DNA from: Alphaproteobacteria bacterium
GTDB lineage: Bacteria > Pseudomonadota > Alphaproteobacteria > Bin95
DNA: 64,000 nt
Assembly: GCA_038102935.1 (NCBI GenBank)
Contig: JAYNYG010000001.1
Location: forward strand, 35,096 to 99,095
Direction of reading: 5' to 3'
Each line of letters begins with the position of its first letter. The stretch's first letter is position 1. Position numbers and translations under genes: made by a program. The notes under the pieces were generated by a model. The model made no database searches and was not told the DNA's origin. It was given only the letters and a program-made list of their open reading frames with translations. Positions 45,459-56,493 of this stretch are shown piece after piece.

Positions 45459-46505
45459 ATGACCCTCGCCGCACAGACCTATGACATCGCTGATATGGCG
45501 ACGGCGCAGGAGTATTATCATAGTCGTGGGTGGACGGATGGGCTGCCTATCGTGCCGCCGACGGCGGAGGCCGTGCAGGCCTGTCTTGAATGGGCGATGA
45601 TGACGCCGGATCAGCTTGTGGGCGTAGAGCCCGTGCGGGAACGGGCGATTACGGCGGAGAAATTGGCGATCAATGCTGTCATGGCTGGGTGCCTGCCGAT
45701 GCACTTTCCCGTGGTCGTCGCGGCGTTCACGGCGATGCTGCAGGAGCCGTTTTTGATGCATGGGGCGACGGCCAGCACGGGCGGGTGTGCAGTGCTGATC
45801 GTCATCAACGGGCCTGTCCGCAAGGAACTCGGCATGAGTGGGCAGTTCAACGCCATCGGCTCCAGCGACCGGGCGACGTCTGTTATCGGGCGGGCGATCC
45901 GGCTGACGATGATCAACCTGATGGATGTGCGCCCCGGCCATATTGACCGATCTACGCTCGGCCATCCGGGCAAGTTCAGTTATTGCATCGCGGAGGATGA
46001 GGAAAACTCAGCGTGGCTGCCGCTCGCCGAAGAGCGGGATTGCCCGCCGGGCGCATCCTCCGTCACCGTGATGGCCGCGATGGCGCCGCGTCAGCTTATG
46101 AATGAGTGGACGACCGAGCCAGAGCAAATTCTGGATACGTTTGCTGCTGAAATCAAAGCGAATATGCGGCATTACTCGATCTGGCCTGGCAACTACGCCA
46201 TCGTCATAGCACCCCAACTTCGCACGCATTTCGAGAAGGCTGGATGGTCCAAGGCGGATGTCAGGCGCTATGTGTTTGAGAAAGCGCGTATCCTCAGGAA
46301 AGAATGGGCGGATGTCGGTAAAGCCTCCGTTGTCAAGCGGCGCGGCGATCAGGAATATGCGGCATTGCCGGATGAAGATCACCTGTTGGTCATCGCTGCT
46401 GGCGGCCCCGCCGGCGGGTTCGGCGCTGTTATCCCGCCCTGGCTTGGTCATAAAAGCCGGGCCGTCACAATCCCCATCGGCGTATGCGTCGATTGTGAAA
46501 TTTAG
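45459..46505 (+). CDS. conserved protein of unknown function, UGSC-selenoprotein-associated (paralog 1)
   Basis: 348 aa; shares GWTDGLP(I/V)VPPT, AINAVMAGCLP(M/E)(H/Y)FPVV, HG(A/S)TASTGG, GMxxxxNxxGxxNRAxxxIGRAxRL, GHPGK(F/Y)SYCIAE, AGWSKAD and C-terminal CVDCEI/CIDCD blocks with 48032..49111 and 20512..21966. Confidence 0.6.
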   Translation: MTLAAQTYDIADMATAQEYYHSRGWTDGLPIVPPTAEAVQACLEWAMMTPDQLVGVEPVRERAITAEKLAINAVMAGCLPMHFPVVVAAFTAMLQEPFLMHGATASTGGCAVLIVINGPVRKELGMSGQFNAIGSSDRATSVIGRAIRLTMINLMDVRPGHIDRSTLGHPGKFSYCIAEDEENSAWLPLAEERDCPPGASSVTVMAAMAPRQLMNEWTTEPEQILDTFAAEIKANMRHYSIWPGNYAIVIAPQLRTHFEKAGWSKADVRRYVFEKARILRKEWADVGKASVVKRRGDQEYAALPDEDHLLVIAAGGPAGGFGAVIPPWLGHKSRAVTIPIGVCVDCEI

Positions 46506-46525
46506 AGAATGGAGAGCTAGAGACA

Positions 46526-47047
46526 TTGCAAGTTCTTGATCCAACCCATGAAGCCGATGTGGTGGGGCTCGTGCCGCCGCCGAGGCTGGACACGCTGGCG
46601 GGCAAAACCGTCGGCGTGATCTCAAACGGCAAGGAGGGCACCAAGCGCTTCTTCGCTGCGATTGAGGCTGAGCTGCGCGAGACCCACGGTGTCGCCGATG
46701 TCGTATGGCGCACCAAAGGCAATTATTCCGCGCCGGCGCCAGAAGCCATCATGGCGGAGGCGGCAGGCTGGGACGCCATCATCTCCGGGGTTGGGGATTG
46801 AGGCAGCTGCTCGTCGTGCAGTTTGCATGACGCAGTGGCTGGCGAACGGATGGGCGTGCCCTCTGCGGGCGTTATGACCGTGCCGTTTTCAGATGCGGCA
46901 GACCTGATGGCCCGCGTGCTCGGCGCGGAAGACTTCCCGTTTGTGGTAATCGACCACCCGATCAGCAGCGCCTCTGAAGAGGCGTTGCGGGAGCAAGCGA
47001 AAACCGCTGTGGCGCAGAGCGTCGCGATCCTGACGAAAGCGGCCTAG
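46526..47047 (+). CDS. UGSC-family selenoprotein (in-frame TGA at 46799..46801 read as Sec; 173 aa)
   Basis: Track ORFs 46526..46801 and 46823..47047 are in the same frame separated only by TGA. The context is …ISGVGD-U-GSCSSCSLHD… (a U-G-S-C UxxC motif). A paralog at 49127..49648 has identical architecture, and a hairpin lies directly 3' of the UGA. TTG start. Confidence 0.6.
46802..46832 (+). promoter_or_regulatory. putative bacterial SECIS hairpin immediately 3' of UGA
   Basis: GGCAGCUGC[UCGUCGU]GCAGUUUGC is an 8-bp stem (one bulge) with a 7-nt G/U-containing loop. The paralog has GGCAGUUGC[UCAACGU]GCAGUUUGC, where the C→U change keeps pairing (U·G). Confidence 0.45.
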
Positions 47048-48031: not shown

Positions 48032-49111
48032 ATGCCACGGGATTCGGCGCGCATCCATGACGTGCCAGACGATCTGCTAGCTGCGATGGATTACTGCTAT
48101 GAGCAGGGCTGGACGGACGGTTTACCCGTCGTCCCGCCGGTGACGGATCGCGTTGAAGCGATGATGATGTATGAGGGCCGCCCGCCTGAAACCGTCATCG
48201 CATTGCATCCTGCGACCGGCCTGGAATGTACAATCCATGCGGCGGCTGTTAACGCCGTTATGGCTGGCTGCCTGCCGGAATACTTCCCTGTTATCGTCGC
48301 GGCGTTCGAAGCGATGCACGAGCCAGATTTCAATTTCCACGGCTCGACAGCAAGCACGGGCGGATCAGCGCCATTGCTGATTGTCAGCGGCGGCGTGGCG
48401 GACGAAATCGGTATGAATTCTGACGTGAACCTGTTCGGCCCCGGCAACCGCGCCAACGCGACGATTGGGCGTGCGACGCGGCTTATTCTGCGGAACGTAT
48501 TTCAGATGATCCCTGGAATTTCCGATAAATCCACCCAGGGTAATCCGAACAAATACAGCTTCTGCATCGCGGAGCGGGCGCGGGATAACCCATGGCCGCT
48601 TTTGGTCGAGACGTTGGATTACCCGGAGGGTGTCAGCAGCGTGACGGCCTATGCTGGCGGCGGGTTTTTCAATGTCGAGAACCATGGTGGCGCGACGCCG
48701 GAAGCTGTTTTAAGCTCATTCGCGGATACGATGGCGGGCCTCGGCGTATTGACCCTTGGCCAATCTGTCATTGTGTTGTCGCCAGAGCATATGCGCATCC
48801 TAGGCAATGCCGGGTGGACGCGCGAGAATGCGCAGGATTATCTGTTCGAGAACGCTAGGCGGAGCCGTGCAGATATGGAAACTGCCGGGAAATTCCGGGA
48901 GCGCGACTACGCCCGGCAGCGCGACCCAGCAGTCAAGAGCTCGCTCTTGCATGACGGTTATATGCATCGCGGCATCAGCCCCGCAGACATCCTGATCATC
49001 ATGGGCGGCGGCGATGCGGGCGGCCATTCCAGCTTCATTCCATCATGGAGCCGGGCGCGGAGTTCGCTGATGCAGTCGAAACCCATCGGCGTTTGTATTG
49101 ATTGCGATTGA
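48032..49111 (+). CDS. conserved protein of unknown function, UGSC-selenoprotein-associated (paralog 2)
   Basis: 359 aa; same conserved blocks as 45459..46505. Confidence 0.6.
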   Translation: MPRDSARIHDVPDDLLAAMDYCYEQGWTDGLPVVPPVTDRVEAMMMYEGRPPETVIALHPATGLECTIHAAAVNAVMAGCLPEYFPVIVAAFEAMHEPDFNFHGSTASTGGSAPLLIVSGGVADEIGMNSDVNLFGPGNRANATIGRATRLILRNVFQMIPGISDKSTQGNPNKYSFCIAERARDNPWPLLVETLDYPEGVSSVTAYAGGGFFNVENHGGATPEAVLSSFADTMAGLGVLTLGQSVIVLSPEHMRILGNAGWTRENAQDYLFENARRSRADMETAGKFRERDYARQRDPAVKSSLLHDGYMHRGISPADILIIMGGGDAGGHSSFIPSWSRARSSLMQSKPIGVCIDCD

Positions 49112-49126
49112 TTGGAGACGTCAGAC

Positions 49127-49648
49127 ATGCAGCTTTATGATCCCACTGTAACGGGGCCAGACCGGCAGAGCCGCCGCGCGCCGCCGCTCGCCTCGCTTGA
49201 GGGGCTGACTGTCGGTTATCTTGAAAACGGCAAGCTGAACGCAACCAACATGTTGCGGGAAACGGCGGAAGTATTCGTCGCCCGTCATGGCTGCCAAATA
49301 GGCCCTGTCTATTCGAAGTTTAACGCCAGCGCGCCAGCGCCAGAAGCCACATTGCGCTTGGCTGCGGACGAAGTCGATTTTCTGATAACCGGGCTCGGTG
49401 ATTGAGGCAGTTGCTCAACGTGCAGTTTGCATGATGGCGTCAGCTTCGAACAACTCGGCAAACGGGCGATTGTGGTTTGTACAGAGCCTTTTGAGGTGAC
49501 GGCGAAGAACATCGCCCGCATGCTCGGCCTGCCGGATTATCCGTTTGTGATGGTTGAGCATCCGTTAGGCAGCCGCTCATTGAATGAAGTTAAGGTGCTT
49601 GCCGAACACGCCTATCAACAATCCCTGCCAATACTCCTGGAGGCATAG
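49127..49648 (+). CDS. UGSC-family selenoprotein, second copy (in-frame TGA at 49403..49405; 173 aa)
   Basis: Track ORFs 49112..49405 and 49427..49648 are in frame across a single TGA; context …ITGLGD-U-GSCSTCSLHD…. Start taken at ATG (MQLYDPT), homologous to MQVLDPT of copy 1; identical length to copy 1. Confidence 0.6.
49406..49436 (+). promoter_or_regulatory. putative SECIS hairpin 3' of UGA (copy 2)
   Basis: GGCAGUUGCUCAACGUGCAGUUUGC folds like the copy-1 element; nucleotide conservation exceeds that of the rest of the two genes. Confidence 0.45.
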
Positions 49649-51918: not shown

Positions 51919-53481
<1,563 letters not shown>

Positions 53482-54803
53482 TGACGGGCCTTGACCGTGC
53501 GGGACCGCTGCCAGGCTACTATCCATCGCCCTGGCCGGTTGAGTGCGGCGGCAATCGGCGCCAGAAAGCTGCCGCTGGAGGGTTGAACGCCCAGGGCGCA
53601 GAAGCCCGCGTTACCTGCCGCAACGATGATCGCTGGCATGTCATGACGATCCGTCGCGCCCCCGGCGAAATATATGTTGGCGGCACGATGCCTGCCTGGC
53701 ATGGTCCAGAACCTTACGGCTGGCTTCAGAAGCTTGATCCCGCAACGCTTGAGCCAACCGCACAATCGCCGGAGCTGCCTGCGGGCGGGCATGTTTGGTG
53801 CGGCGCGATTGCAGCGCATGCCAATGGCGATCTCTATAAGGTCAATGGTTGCTACATGCACCGCCTCGATCCGGAGTGCCATGTGGTGGCGGAACGCCGC
53901 TTGCCCGTCGATCAAGCCCATAACGGCATGCTGATTTTGAGCGATGGCAGCATCGTCACGAAAGATTTGCGGCTGGCCGGGCAGGGGCCGTCCACAGTGA
54001 CGCGACTTTCCGCTGATGGCCTCCAGGTGATGGGCGAGCCGCTTCGGTTGCCCGAAGGCTCTATGGGCCGCATCGCCAGTGATCTGACTGCGGATGGCGA
54101 AGTTATCTATATCCCTGGCATTGAGCATGTTTGGCGCATCCGTGTTGATGGCGATGCGCTTGCGGTCGATGGCGCGTGGTCACCGCGTTATCGTGATGAG
54201 CCGGGGGAACAGGGGCTATCCTGGGACGGATGCGTTTCTGATAACGCGCTCTGGCTCATGGATAATGGCGATATCGATAGCCTCCGGGCGATCTATGGAA
54301 CGCACCCCAACGGCCGTTTCGATGGCCCCGAACATCGCCTGAGTTGGCGCCGCCCGGCGCTTTGGTCAGGCCCGCAACGCTTGCTGAAGGTTTCGCTCGC
54401 GGATGGCGGTATCCAGTCCACCGCGCCATTTGGCACGCCCGGCGGTGGCATCATCGCGCCGCCGGTTTATGTGCCAGAGCATAAGATGTGCATTGCTTGG
54501 GACAGCATTAATGGCGGATTGGCGGGCGTGTCGGACGAGAGCGGCGAATTGAAAGTCGCTTGGACTGTAGATGCGCGGGCATCAATGCAACCGGTTGTGT
54601 TCCCGGATACGGGTGAGCTTGTGATCAACGACTTCACACCCGGCGACGACCGCTTGATCGTTGTCGATATCCAAACCGGCGAAGTCATCGATAGCGTCAG
54701 CACAGGCTCGCACGTTGCGAACGGCATGTTCTTAACGCCAGGCGGCGACCGGGACATCTACTATTGCTCGACCTACGCCGTCGCGCGGGTGCAGTGGGGG
54801 TAA
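53482..54803 (+). CDS. hypothetical protein (possibly beta-propeller-like)
   Basis: Start chosen at the ATG overlapping the upstream stop (TAATG); the track ORF 53364.. is an out-of-context 5' extension. No recognised motif. Confidence 0.45.
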
Positions 54804-54892
54804 TTGGACGCTATAGCGCCGTCACAGAGATTGAAGCCGTCTTTCAAATCTAGATGCAGAGCTCTGATTGGCGCAATTTCCACCAGCGCACA

Positions 54893-54931
54893 CAAAAGCC
54901 GGCTGAGCGTTCCCCGCTCAACCGGCTTTGG
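54893..54931. terminator. bidirectional rho-independent terminator between convergent genes
   Basis: AAAA-GCCGGCTGAGCG-TTCCCC-GCTCAACCGGC-TTTGG is a 12-bp GC-rich stem (1 mismatch) flanked by an A-tract and a T-tract. Confidence 0.6.
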
Positions 54932-54952
54932 CGCTTTGCCTAAAAGCAGAAA

Positions 54953-55612
54953 TCAGGCGAGCGAGGCTACGTCTGCGACCGTCTTGGACGGTTCGGGACG
55001 GCTTGTATAGTCGGCGTCGATATCGGTCATGCGGACGATGCCGGATGTGTCGACAACGATCCGAGCCGGGATCGGAAGGGTCCAAGTGTCGTCGCCATTG
55101 AACTTCGGCAGATTGAGGCCAAAGCCGTTGTAGATTTCCTTCACGGCGTCTGGCACTTCAAAGCGCAGGCCAAGTTCCGCCGCGTAGGCGTTGCCCGGAT
55201 CGCTCAGCAAGTGGAAATTCAACGTATTCTTTACCGCCATTTCCTGATTGTGTTCAGGCATTTGCGGCGTGAGCGCTACGATAGTTGCGCCATATTGGGC
55301 GAGGTCGTCAGCCACTGCTTGCAAAGCATACAGCTCTGCGTTGCAGTAGGGTCACCAAACGCCGCGAAATACAGATACAACGAGCGGGCCTTGGCTCAGC
55401 AAGTCTGCCGAATGGACCTGGACGCCATTGGCATTGTCCAGGCTGAAATCGGGCAGCGAGTCGCCGACTTTGATTGTGTGATCGAGGACGCCGGAATTCC
55501 GTTGATCTTCCGTCGCCTGTTTCATAATGGCGCGTTTGTAGGGCGGAATGCGTTTGGACGAGGCCTCGCGCATTTCCGCCAATTGGGCTTCAAGTGTCAT
55601 GGTAGCTCCCAC
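54953..55612 (-). CDS. AhpC/TSA (peroxiredoxin-like redoxin) family selenoprotein candidate, in-frame TGA at 55352..55354 (complement); 219 aa
   Basis: Track ORFs 55352..55612 and 54953..55324 are co-directional and in frame (660 nt total). My translation across the junction gives …VVSVFRGVW-U-PYCNAEL…, so the TGA occupies the first Cys of the redoxin W-C-P-Y-C motif. Confidence 0.5.
55300..55351 (-). promoter_or_regulatory. possible SECIS-like hairpin 3' of the UGA in the Prx-like gene
   Basis: mRNA UGA-CCCUACUGCAACGCAGAGCUGUAUGCUUUGCAAGCAGUGGC contains CUGC…GCAG and UGCUU[UGC]AAGCA pairings; the fold is less clear than for the UGSC genes. Confidence 0.25.
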
Positions 55613-55749: not shown

Positions 55750-56493
55750 TCAGACGACCAACTGCATCCTATCAGCCGCAAAGCGCGCAATCCCGAATTC
55801 TGTCGGCGAGCCATCGTTATCGACGTTAACGCCTTCTGTAATCAGCACTGGGCGTCCACGTGGCAGCGCCAACCTGCGTGCTTCCTCGGCTGTTGGCGGG
55901 CGGGCATAGATGCGTGTCTCCTGGCGCTCATAGTCCGCCAAGCCGCAGGATTTTAGCGCTTCAGTGATGGAGTGTGTTTTGGCGAAAGCCTTATCGATCT
56001 TCGGAAAGCGCGCGGCGCTGAAATAGTGGGTGGCCAGCGAAAACGGTTCGCTATCGACCAAGCCCAGCCGTTCGACGCGCCAGACATGGGCATTGCCGGA
56101 AAGCTTGAGCGCCGACCGCGCGTCCTGGTGGGCGCGCTCCTTTACGCAATCTAGGATGCGTCCTGCCGGTATACGTTGCTGAGCTGAAAGATTGGCGCTG
56201 AACCGAACGCGCTTACCGAGCGGATATTCAACGACTTCCCGGTTCACGAATACGCCGCGGCCTTGCTCCGTCCGCACCAGTCCGCTTTCGGCCAACGTTG
56301 CGAGGGCGCGGCGGACTGTGTGGCGGTTAACGCCGAACCGCGCTGTCAGTTCCCGTTCCGTCGGCAACCGGCCATCTTGCTCGGCAAACTTATTCGCCTT
56401 GATATCGCCTTCGATGGCAGACGCAATTTGTCGCCAAAGCGTTCTGCCATCGCCGCGTAGTAGCGGGCTAGCCTGATCAAATTCATCCGTCAT
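55750..56493 (-). CDS. phnF: GntR/HutC-family phosphonate-metabolism transcriptional regulator
   Basis: N-terminal GntR wHTH (LPTERELTARFGVNRHTVRRALATLAESGLV) plus UTRA effector domain; divergent from phnG. Confidence 0.8.
   Translation of the reverse strand: MTDEFDQASPLLRGDGRTLWRQIASAIEGDIKANKFAEQDGRLPTERELTARFGVNRHTVRRALATLAESGLVRTEQGRGVFVNREVVEYPLGKRVRFSANLSAQQRIPAGRILDCVKERAHQDARSALKLSGNAHVWRVERLGLVDSEPFSLATHYFSAARFPKIDKAFAKTHSITEALKSCGLADYERQETRIYARPPTAEEARRLALPRGRPVLITEGVNVDNDGSPTEFGIARFAADRMQLVV

Follow-up and report, generated by a model that had tools for sequence, protein, structure and literature searches.

A Prx-like gene with an in-frame TGA codon

In the 64,000-nt stretch of DNA analysed here (the window), the minus strand is, with high probability, home to one gene for a 215-residue, putatively cytoplasmic protein of the thioredoxin fold, a 'Prx-like 1 / Prx-like thiol:disulfide oxidoreductase' selenoprotein in which UGA at codon 83 is read as selenocysteine (Sec). 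The UGA is conserved among homologues, other homologues carry Cys in its place, a conserved RNA hairpin follows it, fold and motif place it in a redox centre, and the protein is clearly related by sequence identity to published members of this family.

Two co-directional ORFs in the same frame of the minus strand, 55352..55612 (86 aa from a GTG) and 54953..55324 (123 aa from a TTG), are separated by a single TGA at 55354-55352. This layout, including its coordinates, had been proposed in an earlier sequence-only reading of the window and was confirmed by translation. The minus-strand frame reads ...GPLVVSVFRGVW-*-PYCNAELYALQ... across the junction, or FRGVW-U-PYCNAEL when the TGA is taken as Sec. 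For the joined product, the frame and coordinates given earlier were right; the length of 219 aa has to be corrected to 215 aa, as obtained from the likelier start, which is the ATG at 55600 (MTLEAQ...) and not the GTG at 55612. Gene calls of relatives likewise begin with MTLEAQ or MSL, and a putative Shine-Dalgarno sequence, GGGAG (55606..55610, minus strand), assigned from the consensus, is located 5 nt upstream of this ATG. The complete coding sequence thus extends over 54953..55600 on the minus strand, comprises 215 codons including Sec83 and ends with its own TGA stop codon (54955-54953). GC3 coding bias is present in the 3′ part of the gene.

When the joined protein was scored against Pfam with Cys substituted for the TGA, residues 44-194, which span the junction, matched AhpC-TSA (PF00578; 5e-23, 81.8 bits, cutoff 26) and Redoxin (PF08534; 4e-18). 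Approximately 26 nt past the stop, a ViennaRNA fold of positions 54880-54960 (minus strand) showed an intrinsic-terminator-like hairpin, AGCCGGUUGAGCG-GGGAA-CGCUCAGCCGGCU, followed by UUUUGUGUG (54889..54927, minus strand). This element is predicted from its fold, and a simple terminator pattern scanner did not report a hairpin at 54889-54927. Because the true stop is followed by a strong hairpin and then UUUUGUGUG, the gene looks monocistronic.

Conservation of the TGA codon among homologues

A scan of one genome per species yielded 42 homologous loci. The aligned codon reads TGA at 39 loci and TGT or TGC at the remaining three (L042, L045 and L046); two additional contigs (L049 and L050) have the same TGA at this codon. 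The 39 TGA loci encode proteins with 43-92% identity to the window protein and stem from bins assigned to Alpha- and Gammaproteobacteria, Myxococcota, Acidobacteriota, Desulfobacterales, Desulfuromonadales and others. Each of them contains exactly one in-frame stop, the TGA itself, and the additional stops or frameshifts that would have pointed to pseudogenisation were seen in none. The earlier argument that a stop is unlikely to fall by chance on the codon of the active-site Cys could therefore be extended far beyond a single sequence, since 39 of 42 independent loci have the TGA, as do L049 and L050. The in-frame TGA (55352..55354, minus strand) corresponds to residue 83 within the motif W-U-P-Y-C. 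The codon of Cys86, the predicted resolving partner in UxxC, which in alignments to 5epf and 2cx3 matches the peroxidatic Cys of BCP/PrxQ peroxiredoxins, is located at 55343..55345 (minus strand), and this position is occupied by Cys in all 39 TGA loci.

Cys homologues, which had been predicted for this codon, were found not only as the TGT and TGC codons of three of the 42 loci but also among database proteins: full-length homologues carry WCPYC in identical context, for example P0009 (FRGVWCPYCNAEL). Among the best 120 database matches, 45 are proteins of approximately 122 aa that begin just past the TGA codon and cover the C-terminal 57% of the query with 67-100% identity; the others are full-length proteins of 215-225 aa with 42-56% identity. 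A global reassignment of TGA was ruled out, as TGA terminates 27 of the 61 crude gene calls made in the window, the Prx-like gene included.

Three orthologues (L012, L029 and L037), which are 49-70% identical to the window protein and have the same SECIS sequence, are located on short contigs binned as Nitrosopumilus (an archaeon) and Spirochaetales. Their placement may reflect binning contamination or horizontal transfer, and a nearly identical SECIS across phyla fits either.

A conserved SECIS-like hairpin downstream of the TGA

Folding of the RNA 3′ of the UGA, which had been suggested as a check, revealed a conserved hairpin as in bacterial SECIS elements. In the window it lies within the coding sequence at 55312..55349 (minus strand) and has a folding energy of -20.3 kcal/mol. 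Its lower helix is formed by 55343-55349 paired with 55312-55318, its apical helix of 7 bp by 55333-55339 paired with 55321-55327, and the 5-nt loop UGUAU (55328-55332, minus strand) starts 19 nt past the UGA. Bacterial SECIS elements have been described as stem-loops that directly follow the UGA and have a G in a small apical loop (PMC1088965); position, small loop and an invariant G are all found in the present hairpin.

The synonymous positions of codons +1 to +11 are frozen, that is near-invariant among the 39 TGA genes: CCC occurs in 33/39, TAC in 34/39, GAG in 39/39, CTG in 39/39 and GCT in 35/39. Residues that are equally conserved at the protein level, Arg-4, Gly-3 and Val+25, use three to four codons in the same 39 genes. 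Across an alignment of 40 sequences, pairing amounts to 97.7% in the apical helix, where A-U/G-U and G-U/G-C exchanges occur, and to 74% in the lower helix. The loop begins with an invariant U followed by an invariant G, which in the window lies at 55331. Minimum-energy folding returned the hairpin for 37 of 40 TGA genes, with a loop of 3-5 nt starting 19-20 nt past the UGA, and the hairpin of the window is intact and identical to the one in four other genomes. Its mean energy is -16.7 kcal/mol in TGA genes versus -3.0, -4.0 and -4.9 kcal/mol in the three Cys genes, which do not have it.

Double-sided compensatory changes were not observed in any pair of the apical helix in the 40-sequence alignment. 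RNAalifold retained part of this helix and suggested an alternative small helix over the UGA. As classical covariation is absent, support for the RNA structure comes from the conservation of synonymous sites, the one-sided exchanges and the contrast between Sec and Cys genes. The hairpin had no match in Rfam, either at the gathering threshold for the whole window or at E <= 10 for positions 55200-55450.

Capacity for Sec decoding

On the plus strand, the window contains two further genes with an in-frame TGA, 46526-47047 and 49112-49648, with their TGA codons at 46799-46801 and 49403-49405 (+). These scored 126.9 and 112.2 bits, respectively, against NF041046, the NCBIfam model 'UGSC family (seleno)protein', the cutoff of which is 125. 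Since two additional genes of the window with in-frame TGA match this model, the organism very probably decodes Sec, as far as can be judged from sequence. Searches with ARAGORN found no tRNAs, tRNA-Sec included, in the 64-kb window or in the 42 loci, and SelA, SelB and SelD domains were absent among the 30 large window ORFs screened. Alphaproteobacterial tRNA-Sec genes can be embedded in an extended selB (Mukai 2021, cited in PMC9312934).

The two UGSC-family genes are part of two tandem, paralogous two-gene cassettes (45459-47047 and 48032-49648, plus strand). In each cassette an ORF of approximately 350 aa (45459-46505 and 48032-49111) precedes the UGSC-family gene. Both of these ORFs contain GWTDGLP(I/V)VPP... 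and end in CxDC, and neither matched Pfam or NCBIfam.

Alternative explanations for the in-frame TGA

Other explanations of the TGA were weighed against these data. A pseudogene, or a sequencing or assembly error in the Cys codon, can be given practically no weight. A single base change does convert TGC or TGT to TGA, and public gene callers divide the gene in two, but 39 of 42 loci, each assembled independently, share the TGA, and their identities of 43-92% exclude one clonal sequence. In addition, both halves are conserved at the protein level with no further stops or frameshifts, and the synonymous-site constraint and the hairpin are specific to genes bearing the TGA. It is also extremely improbable that the locus gives rise to two products, an 82-aa peptide ending at the UGA and a 123-aa protein translated from the TTG at 55324. 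Databases annotate it in this way and a TTG-start ORF indeed exists 9 codons past the TGA; however, 10 of 39 orthologues have CTG in place of this TTG, reading of the sequence showed no ribosome-binding site in front of it, and the full-length Cys homologues are single polypeptides. Moreover, such a split would separate strand beta1 of the thioredoxin fold from the active-site helix and discard the conserved W-U-P-Y-C.

Readthrough of the UGA without selenium, by near-cognate insertion of Trp or Cys, might be envisaged for a lineage in which the codon has outlived the Sec machinery. The lack of sel genes among the 30 large window ORFs screened would agree with this, and close relatives having a Ser codon and a relic hairpin indicate that Sec use in the family can be lost. 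Yet the intact window hairpin, shared unchanged with four other genomes, argues against such a loss here, as does the presence within 9 kb of three genes with an in-frame TGA, all from known selenoprotein families. Furthermore, UGA and hairpin have long been retained across phyla, implying a working SelB-dependent system, and we consider selenium-free readthrough very unlikely. We therefore prefer the reading of the locus as one gene in which UGA83 specifies Sec.

Fold, redox motif and proposed mechanism

The TGA had been described as lying at the position of the nucleophilic Cys in the CxxC motif of the thioredoxin fold. In sequence alignments with PDB chains, U83 and C86 align on the WCxxC redox motif of DsbE/CcmG/ResA, in agreement with this assignment. 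Aligned with the peroxiredoxins 5epf (...MTPGC...) and 2cx3 (...FSPVC...), U83 falls on the Thr/Ser of the catalytic triad and C86 on the peroxidatic Cys. The PxxxTxxC signature is not kept: the alignment to 5epf puts its Thr on Sec83 and its Pro on Arg79, and the Cys alone is retained. Lacking the Pro and Thr of this signature, the Prx-like protein does not count as a canonical peroxiredoxin. Arg180, a candidate counterpart of the catalytic Arg of peroxiredoxins, is invariant or nearly so in the family, and the alignments to PDB chains end before this residue.

P0008, the closest Cys homologue, with approximately 55% identity to the window protein, served as a structural proxy through its AlphaFold model. 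The model (pLDDT 94.4) has a BCP/AhpE-like fold (TM 0.85-0.89) and places the first Cys in a loop immediately before the active-site helix 87-98. It also shows an extra N-terminal two-helix hairpin of approximately 45 residues and a helical insert. Judged by eye, the N-terminus of the modelled protein looks like soluble helices.

The classification as a UxxC Prx-like/redoxin selenoprotein, already put forward in the sequence-only reading, is supported by the conserved TGA, the Cys homologues, the hairpin and the alignment of the motif. The mechanism best supported is a thioredoxin-type UxxC redox centre on a peroxiredoxin scaffold. We infer Sec insertion in the source organism, as well as substrate and reductant, as follows. 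With the UGA in the ribosomal A site, the stem-loop of the next ~40 nt would recruit SelB carrying Sec-tRNA(Sec), Sec would be inserted at codon 83, and translation would run on to the true TGA stop at 54953, followed by the terminator. Sec83 is predicted to occupy the loop that leads into the first active-site helix, the site of the nucleophile in a thioredoxin-type CxxC, and Cys86 to follow one turn further on, where BCP/PrxQ have their peroxidatic Cys. The selenolate of Sec83 would then likely attack the oxidised substrate, which may be a disulfide, a sulfenic acid or a peroxide. An Se-S bond (selenenylsulfide) could subsequently be formed with Cys86, and a thioredoxin-like reductant would recycle this form.

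Relationship to known selenoprotein and redoxin families

UxxC Prx-like redoxins had been regarded as an established class of selenoproteins, and they were indeed catalogued in marine metagenome surveys between 2005 and 2008. The Sargasso Sea selenoproteome includes 22 sequences of 'Prx-like' selenoproteins, in which a thioredoxin-like UxxC replaces TxxU (PMC1088965). In Table 2 of the Global Ocean Sampling (GOS) marine metagenome survey, 'Prx-like 1' (pfam00578, UxxC) is represented by 225 selenoprotein sequences, next to 2,740 Cys homologues (Zhang & Gladyshev 2008; PMC2398784). In the portion of the GOS supplementary sequences considered here, the entries under '#Prx-like 1' include reads with VFRGHWUPYCNAELYALQ (PMC2398784). 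Two reads from that portion, JCVI_READ_1565530 and JCVI_READ_1091141146517, align with the window protein over approximately 190 residues at 53% and 51% identity (E 9e-76 and 5e-75, respectively). The published members are themselves bioinformatic predictions (PMC2398784).

The window protein shares with 'Prx-like 1' the Pfam domain and the UxxC motif, and with these two reads the signature VFRG(H/V)WUPYCNAELYALQ (PMC2398784). Marine bacteria are the source of both reads and also of most relatives of the window gene. The published group is broad (WUPYCR, WUPYCK, WUPFCM and others), and the window gene belongs to its 'UPYCNAEL' sub-branch, which occurs four times in the portion of the supplementary sequences considered. 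There is no difference in kind; the window orthologue is that of an unclassified lineage of Alphaproteobacteria. The gene thus adds one orthologue to a sub-family of selenoproteins already in the literature and has no novelty at the family level.

Of the proteins in the PDB, those most similar in sequence and fold are BCP/PrxQ and AhpE (Mycobacterium tuberculosis BcpB, 5epf; A. pernix PrxQ, 2cx3; AhpE, 1xxu), and Cys86 superposes on the peroxidatic Cys of BCP/PrxQ. In contrast to these proteins, the window protein does not have PxxxTxxC and, according to the model, adds the N-terminal two-helix hairpin and the helical insert. In known Sec-peroxiredoxins, Sec occupies the peroxidatic position, TxxU (PMC1088965, PMC13188914), whereas Sec83 of the window protein is not located there. 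With TlpA/ResA/DsbE(CcmG) the protein has in common the W-C-x-x-C redox motif, on which both redox residues align, and the fold; those proteins, however, are membrane-anchored or periplasmic.

None of the curated NCBIfam models attained its cutoff on the joined protein. The window protein scored 30.9 bits against ResA (cutoff 170), 22.3-22.9 bits against DsbE (cutoffs 123-359), 16.1 bits against TlpA (cutoff 230) and 30.7 bits against the SelL-related redox protein model NF040769 (cutoff 120). It resembles NF040769 and the cd02970 'peroxiredoxin-like family protein' selenoprotein (PMC13188914) in its Prx-like fold and in having Sec at the first position of the motif, and NCBI labels Cys homologues of the window gene 'peroxiredoxin-like family protein'. 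It differs from them in its motif, which is UxxC and not UxxU or UxxS (PMC13188914).

Genomic neighbourhood

The sequence-only reading had counted the Prx-like gene as a third selenoprotein candidate within ~10 kb of the two UGSC genes and had suggested that the selenoproteome might be concentrated in this accessory, oxygenase-rich locus. In the window there are indeed three such genes within approximately 9 kb. The idea of a concentrated selenoproteome was not supported: UGSC genes are absent around the orthologues, none having been found within ±3 kb at the 42 loci or within ±10 kb in L049 and L050, and no partner gene recurs. All-against-all clustering of flanking ORFs, carried out with respect to a conserved operon partner, returned only lineage-specific synteny and a spurious antisense ORF.

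The order phnG-phnF-Prx-like-orf479-AMP-ligase is kept in the close relatives L005-L010 only, which include the MAGs JBDQJI01 (L005) and CALLKY01 (L006). In the 10-kb flank of an 88%-identical relative, the phn operon and phnF adjoin the Prx-like gene. Its other flank contains housekeeping genes (ATP12, HAD, RluA-type, CrcB and others) where the window has the UGSC/oxygenase block, and neither UGSC cassettes nor oxygenases were present in the 10-kb flank. The neighbourhood in a 70%-identical relative is wholly different. As the arrangement is not kept in relatives, the proximity of UGSC and Prx-like genes looks incidental, a variable accessory block having been inserted beside a phn-anchored gene. 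A 'selenoprotein island' was accordingly rejected, with the UGSC block missing beside the orthologues and the neighbourhoods differing.

The description of the locus as oxygenase-rich is borne out by a high density of oxygenases and acyl-activating enzymes at 3-53 kb of the window. This region encodes two TauD/TfdA dioxygenases, a PhyH protein, two nitronate monooxygenases, a luciferase-like monooxygenase and an FMO-like flavoprotein, together with three AMP-binding ligases, a family III CoA-transferase and a methylmalonyl-CoA mutase. A C-P lyase (phn) operon begins at approximately 56.5 kb, and PhnF is encoded at 55750-56493. The ORF convergent with the Prx-like gene (53364-54803, plus strand; 479 aa) is approximately 84% identical in L005-L008 and had no match in Pfam or NCBIfam.

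Annotation and exchange of Sec for Ser

Public gene calls (L001-L004, L049, L050 and the database matches) consistently represent the gene as an 82-aa ORF without a domain match and a 'peroxiredoxin' of approximately 120-123 aa. Owing to these split calls, and to the lack of an NCBIfam model that reaches its cutoff, the family is systematically under-counted in marine and soil genomes, which a curated '(seleno)protein' model would mend. The window, with its three selenoprotein genes, very probably adds one more Sec user, an unclassified alphaproteobacterium; the Prx-like gene leaves the knowledge of selenoprotein families and of Sec decoding unchanged.

In at least five phyla the SECIS is nearly the same at the nucleotide level, which may point to horizontal spread of a unit of gene plus SECIS. 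That the UPYCNAEL sub-branch is more than a generic 'Prx-like' group, given Sec on the position of the catalytic Thr beside a Cys in peroxidatic position, the spread of the SECIS and, in some lineages, single UGA to UCA flips to Ser that leave a relic hairpin and restore a Prx-style S/TxxC site, appears rather unlikely to us. If it were true biochemically, it would represent a natural switch between selenenylsulfide chemistry of the thioredoxin type and peroxidatic-Cys chemistry of the peroxiredoxin type on one scaffold.

The two closest full-length relatives, P0004 (L047:79-726) and P0003 (L048:812-1465), are 55-56% identical to the window protein and have Ser at the position of Sec. Their Ser codons are TCG and TCA, the latter being one substitution away from TGA. 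Both keep a relic SECIS hairpin, with folding energies of -14.4 and -10.8 kcal/mol versus -3 to -4.9 kcal/mol in the Cys genes. Judging from these sequences, this looks like a recent loss of Sec to Ser giving an SxxC motif in the style of peroxiredoxins. Each of the two Ser genes adjoins a Zn_peptidase_2 gene.
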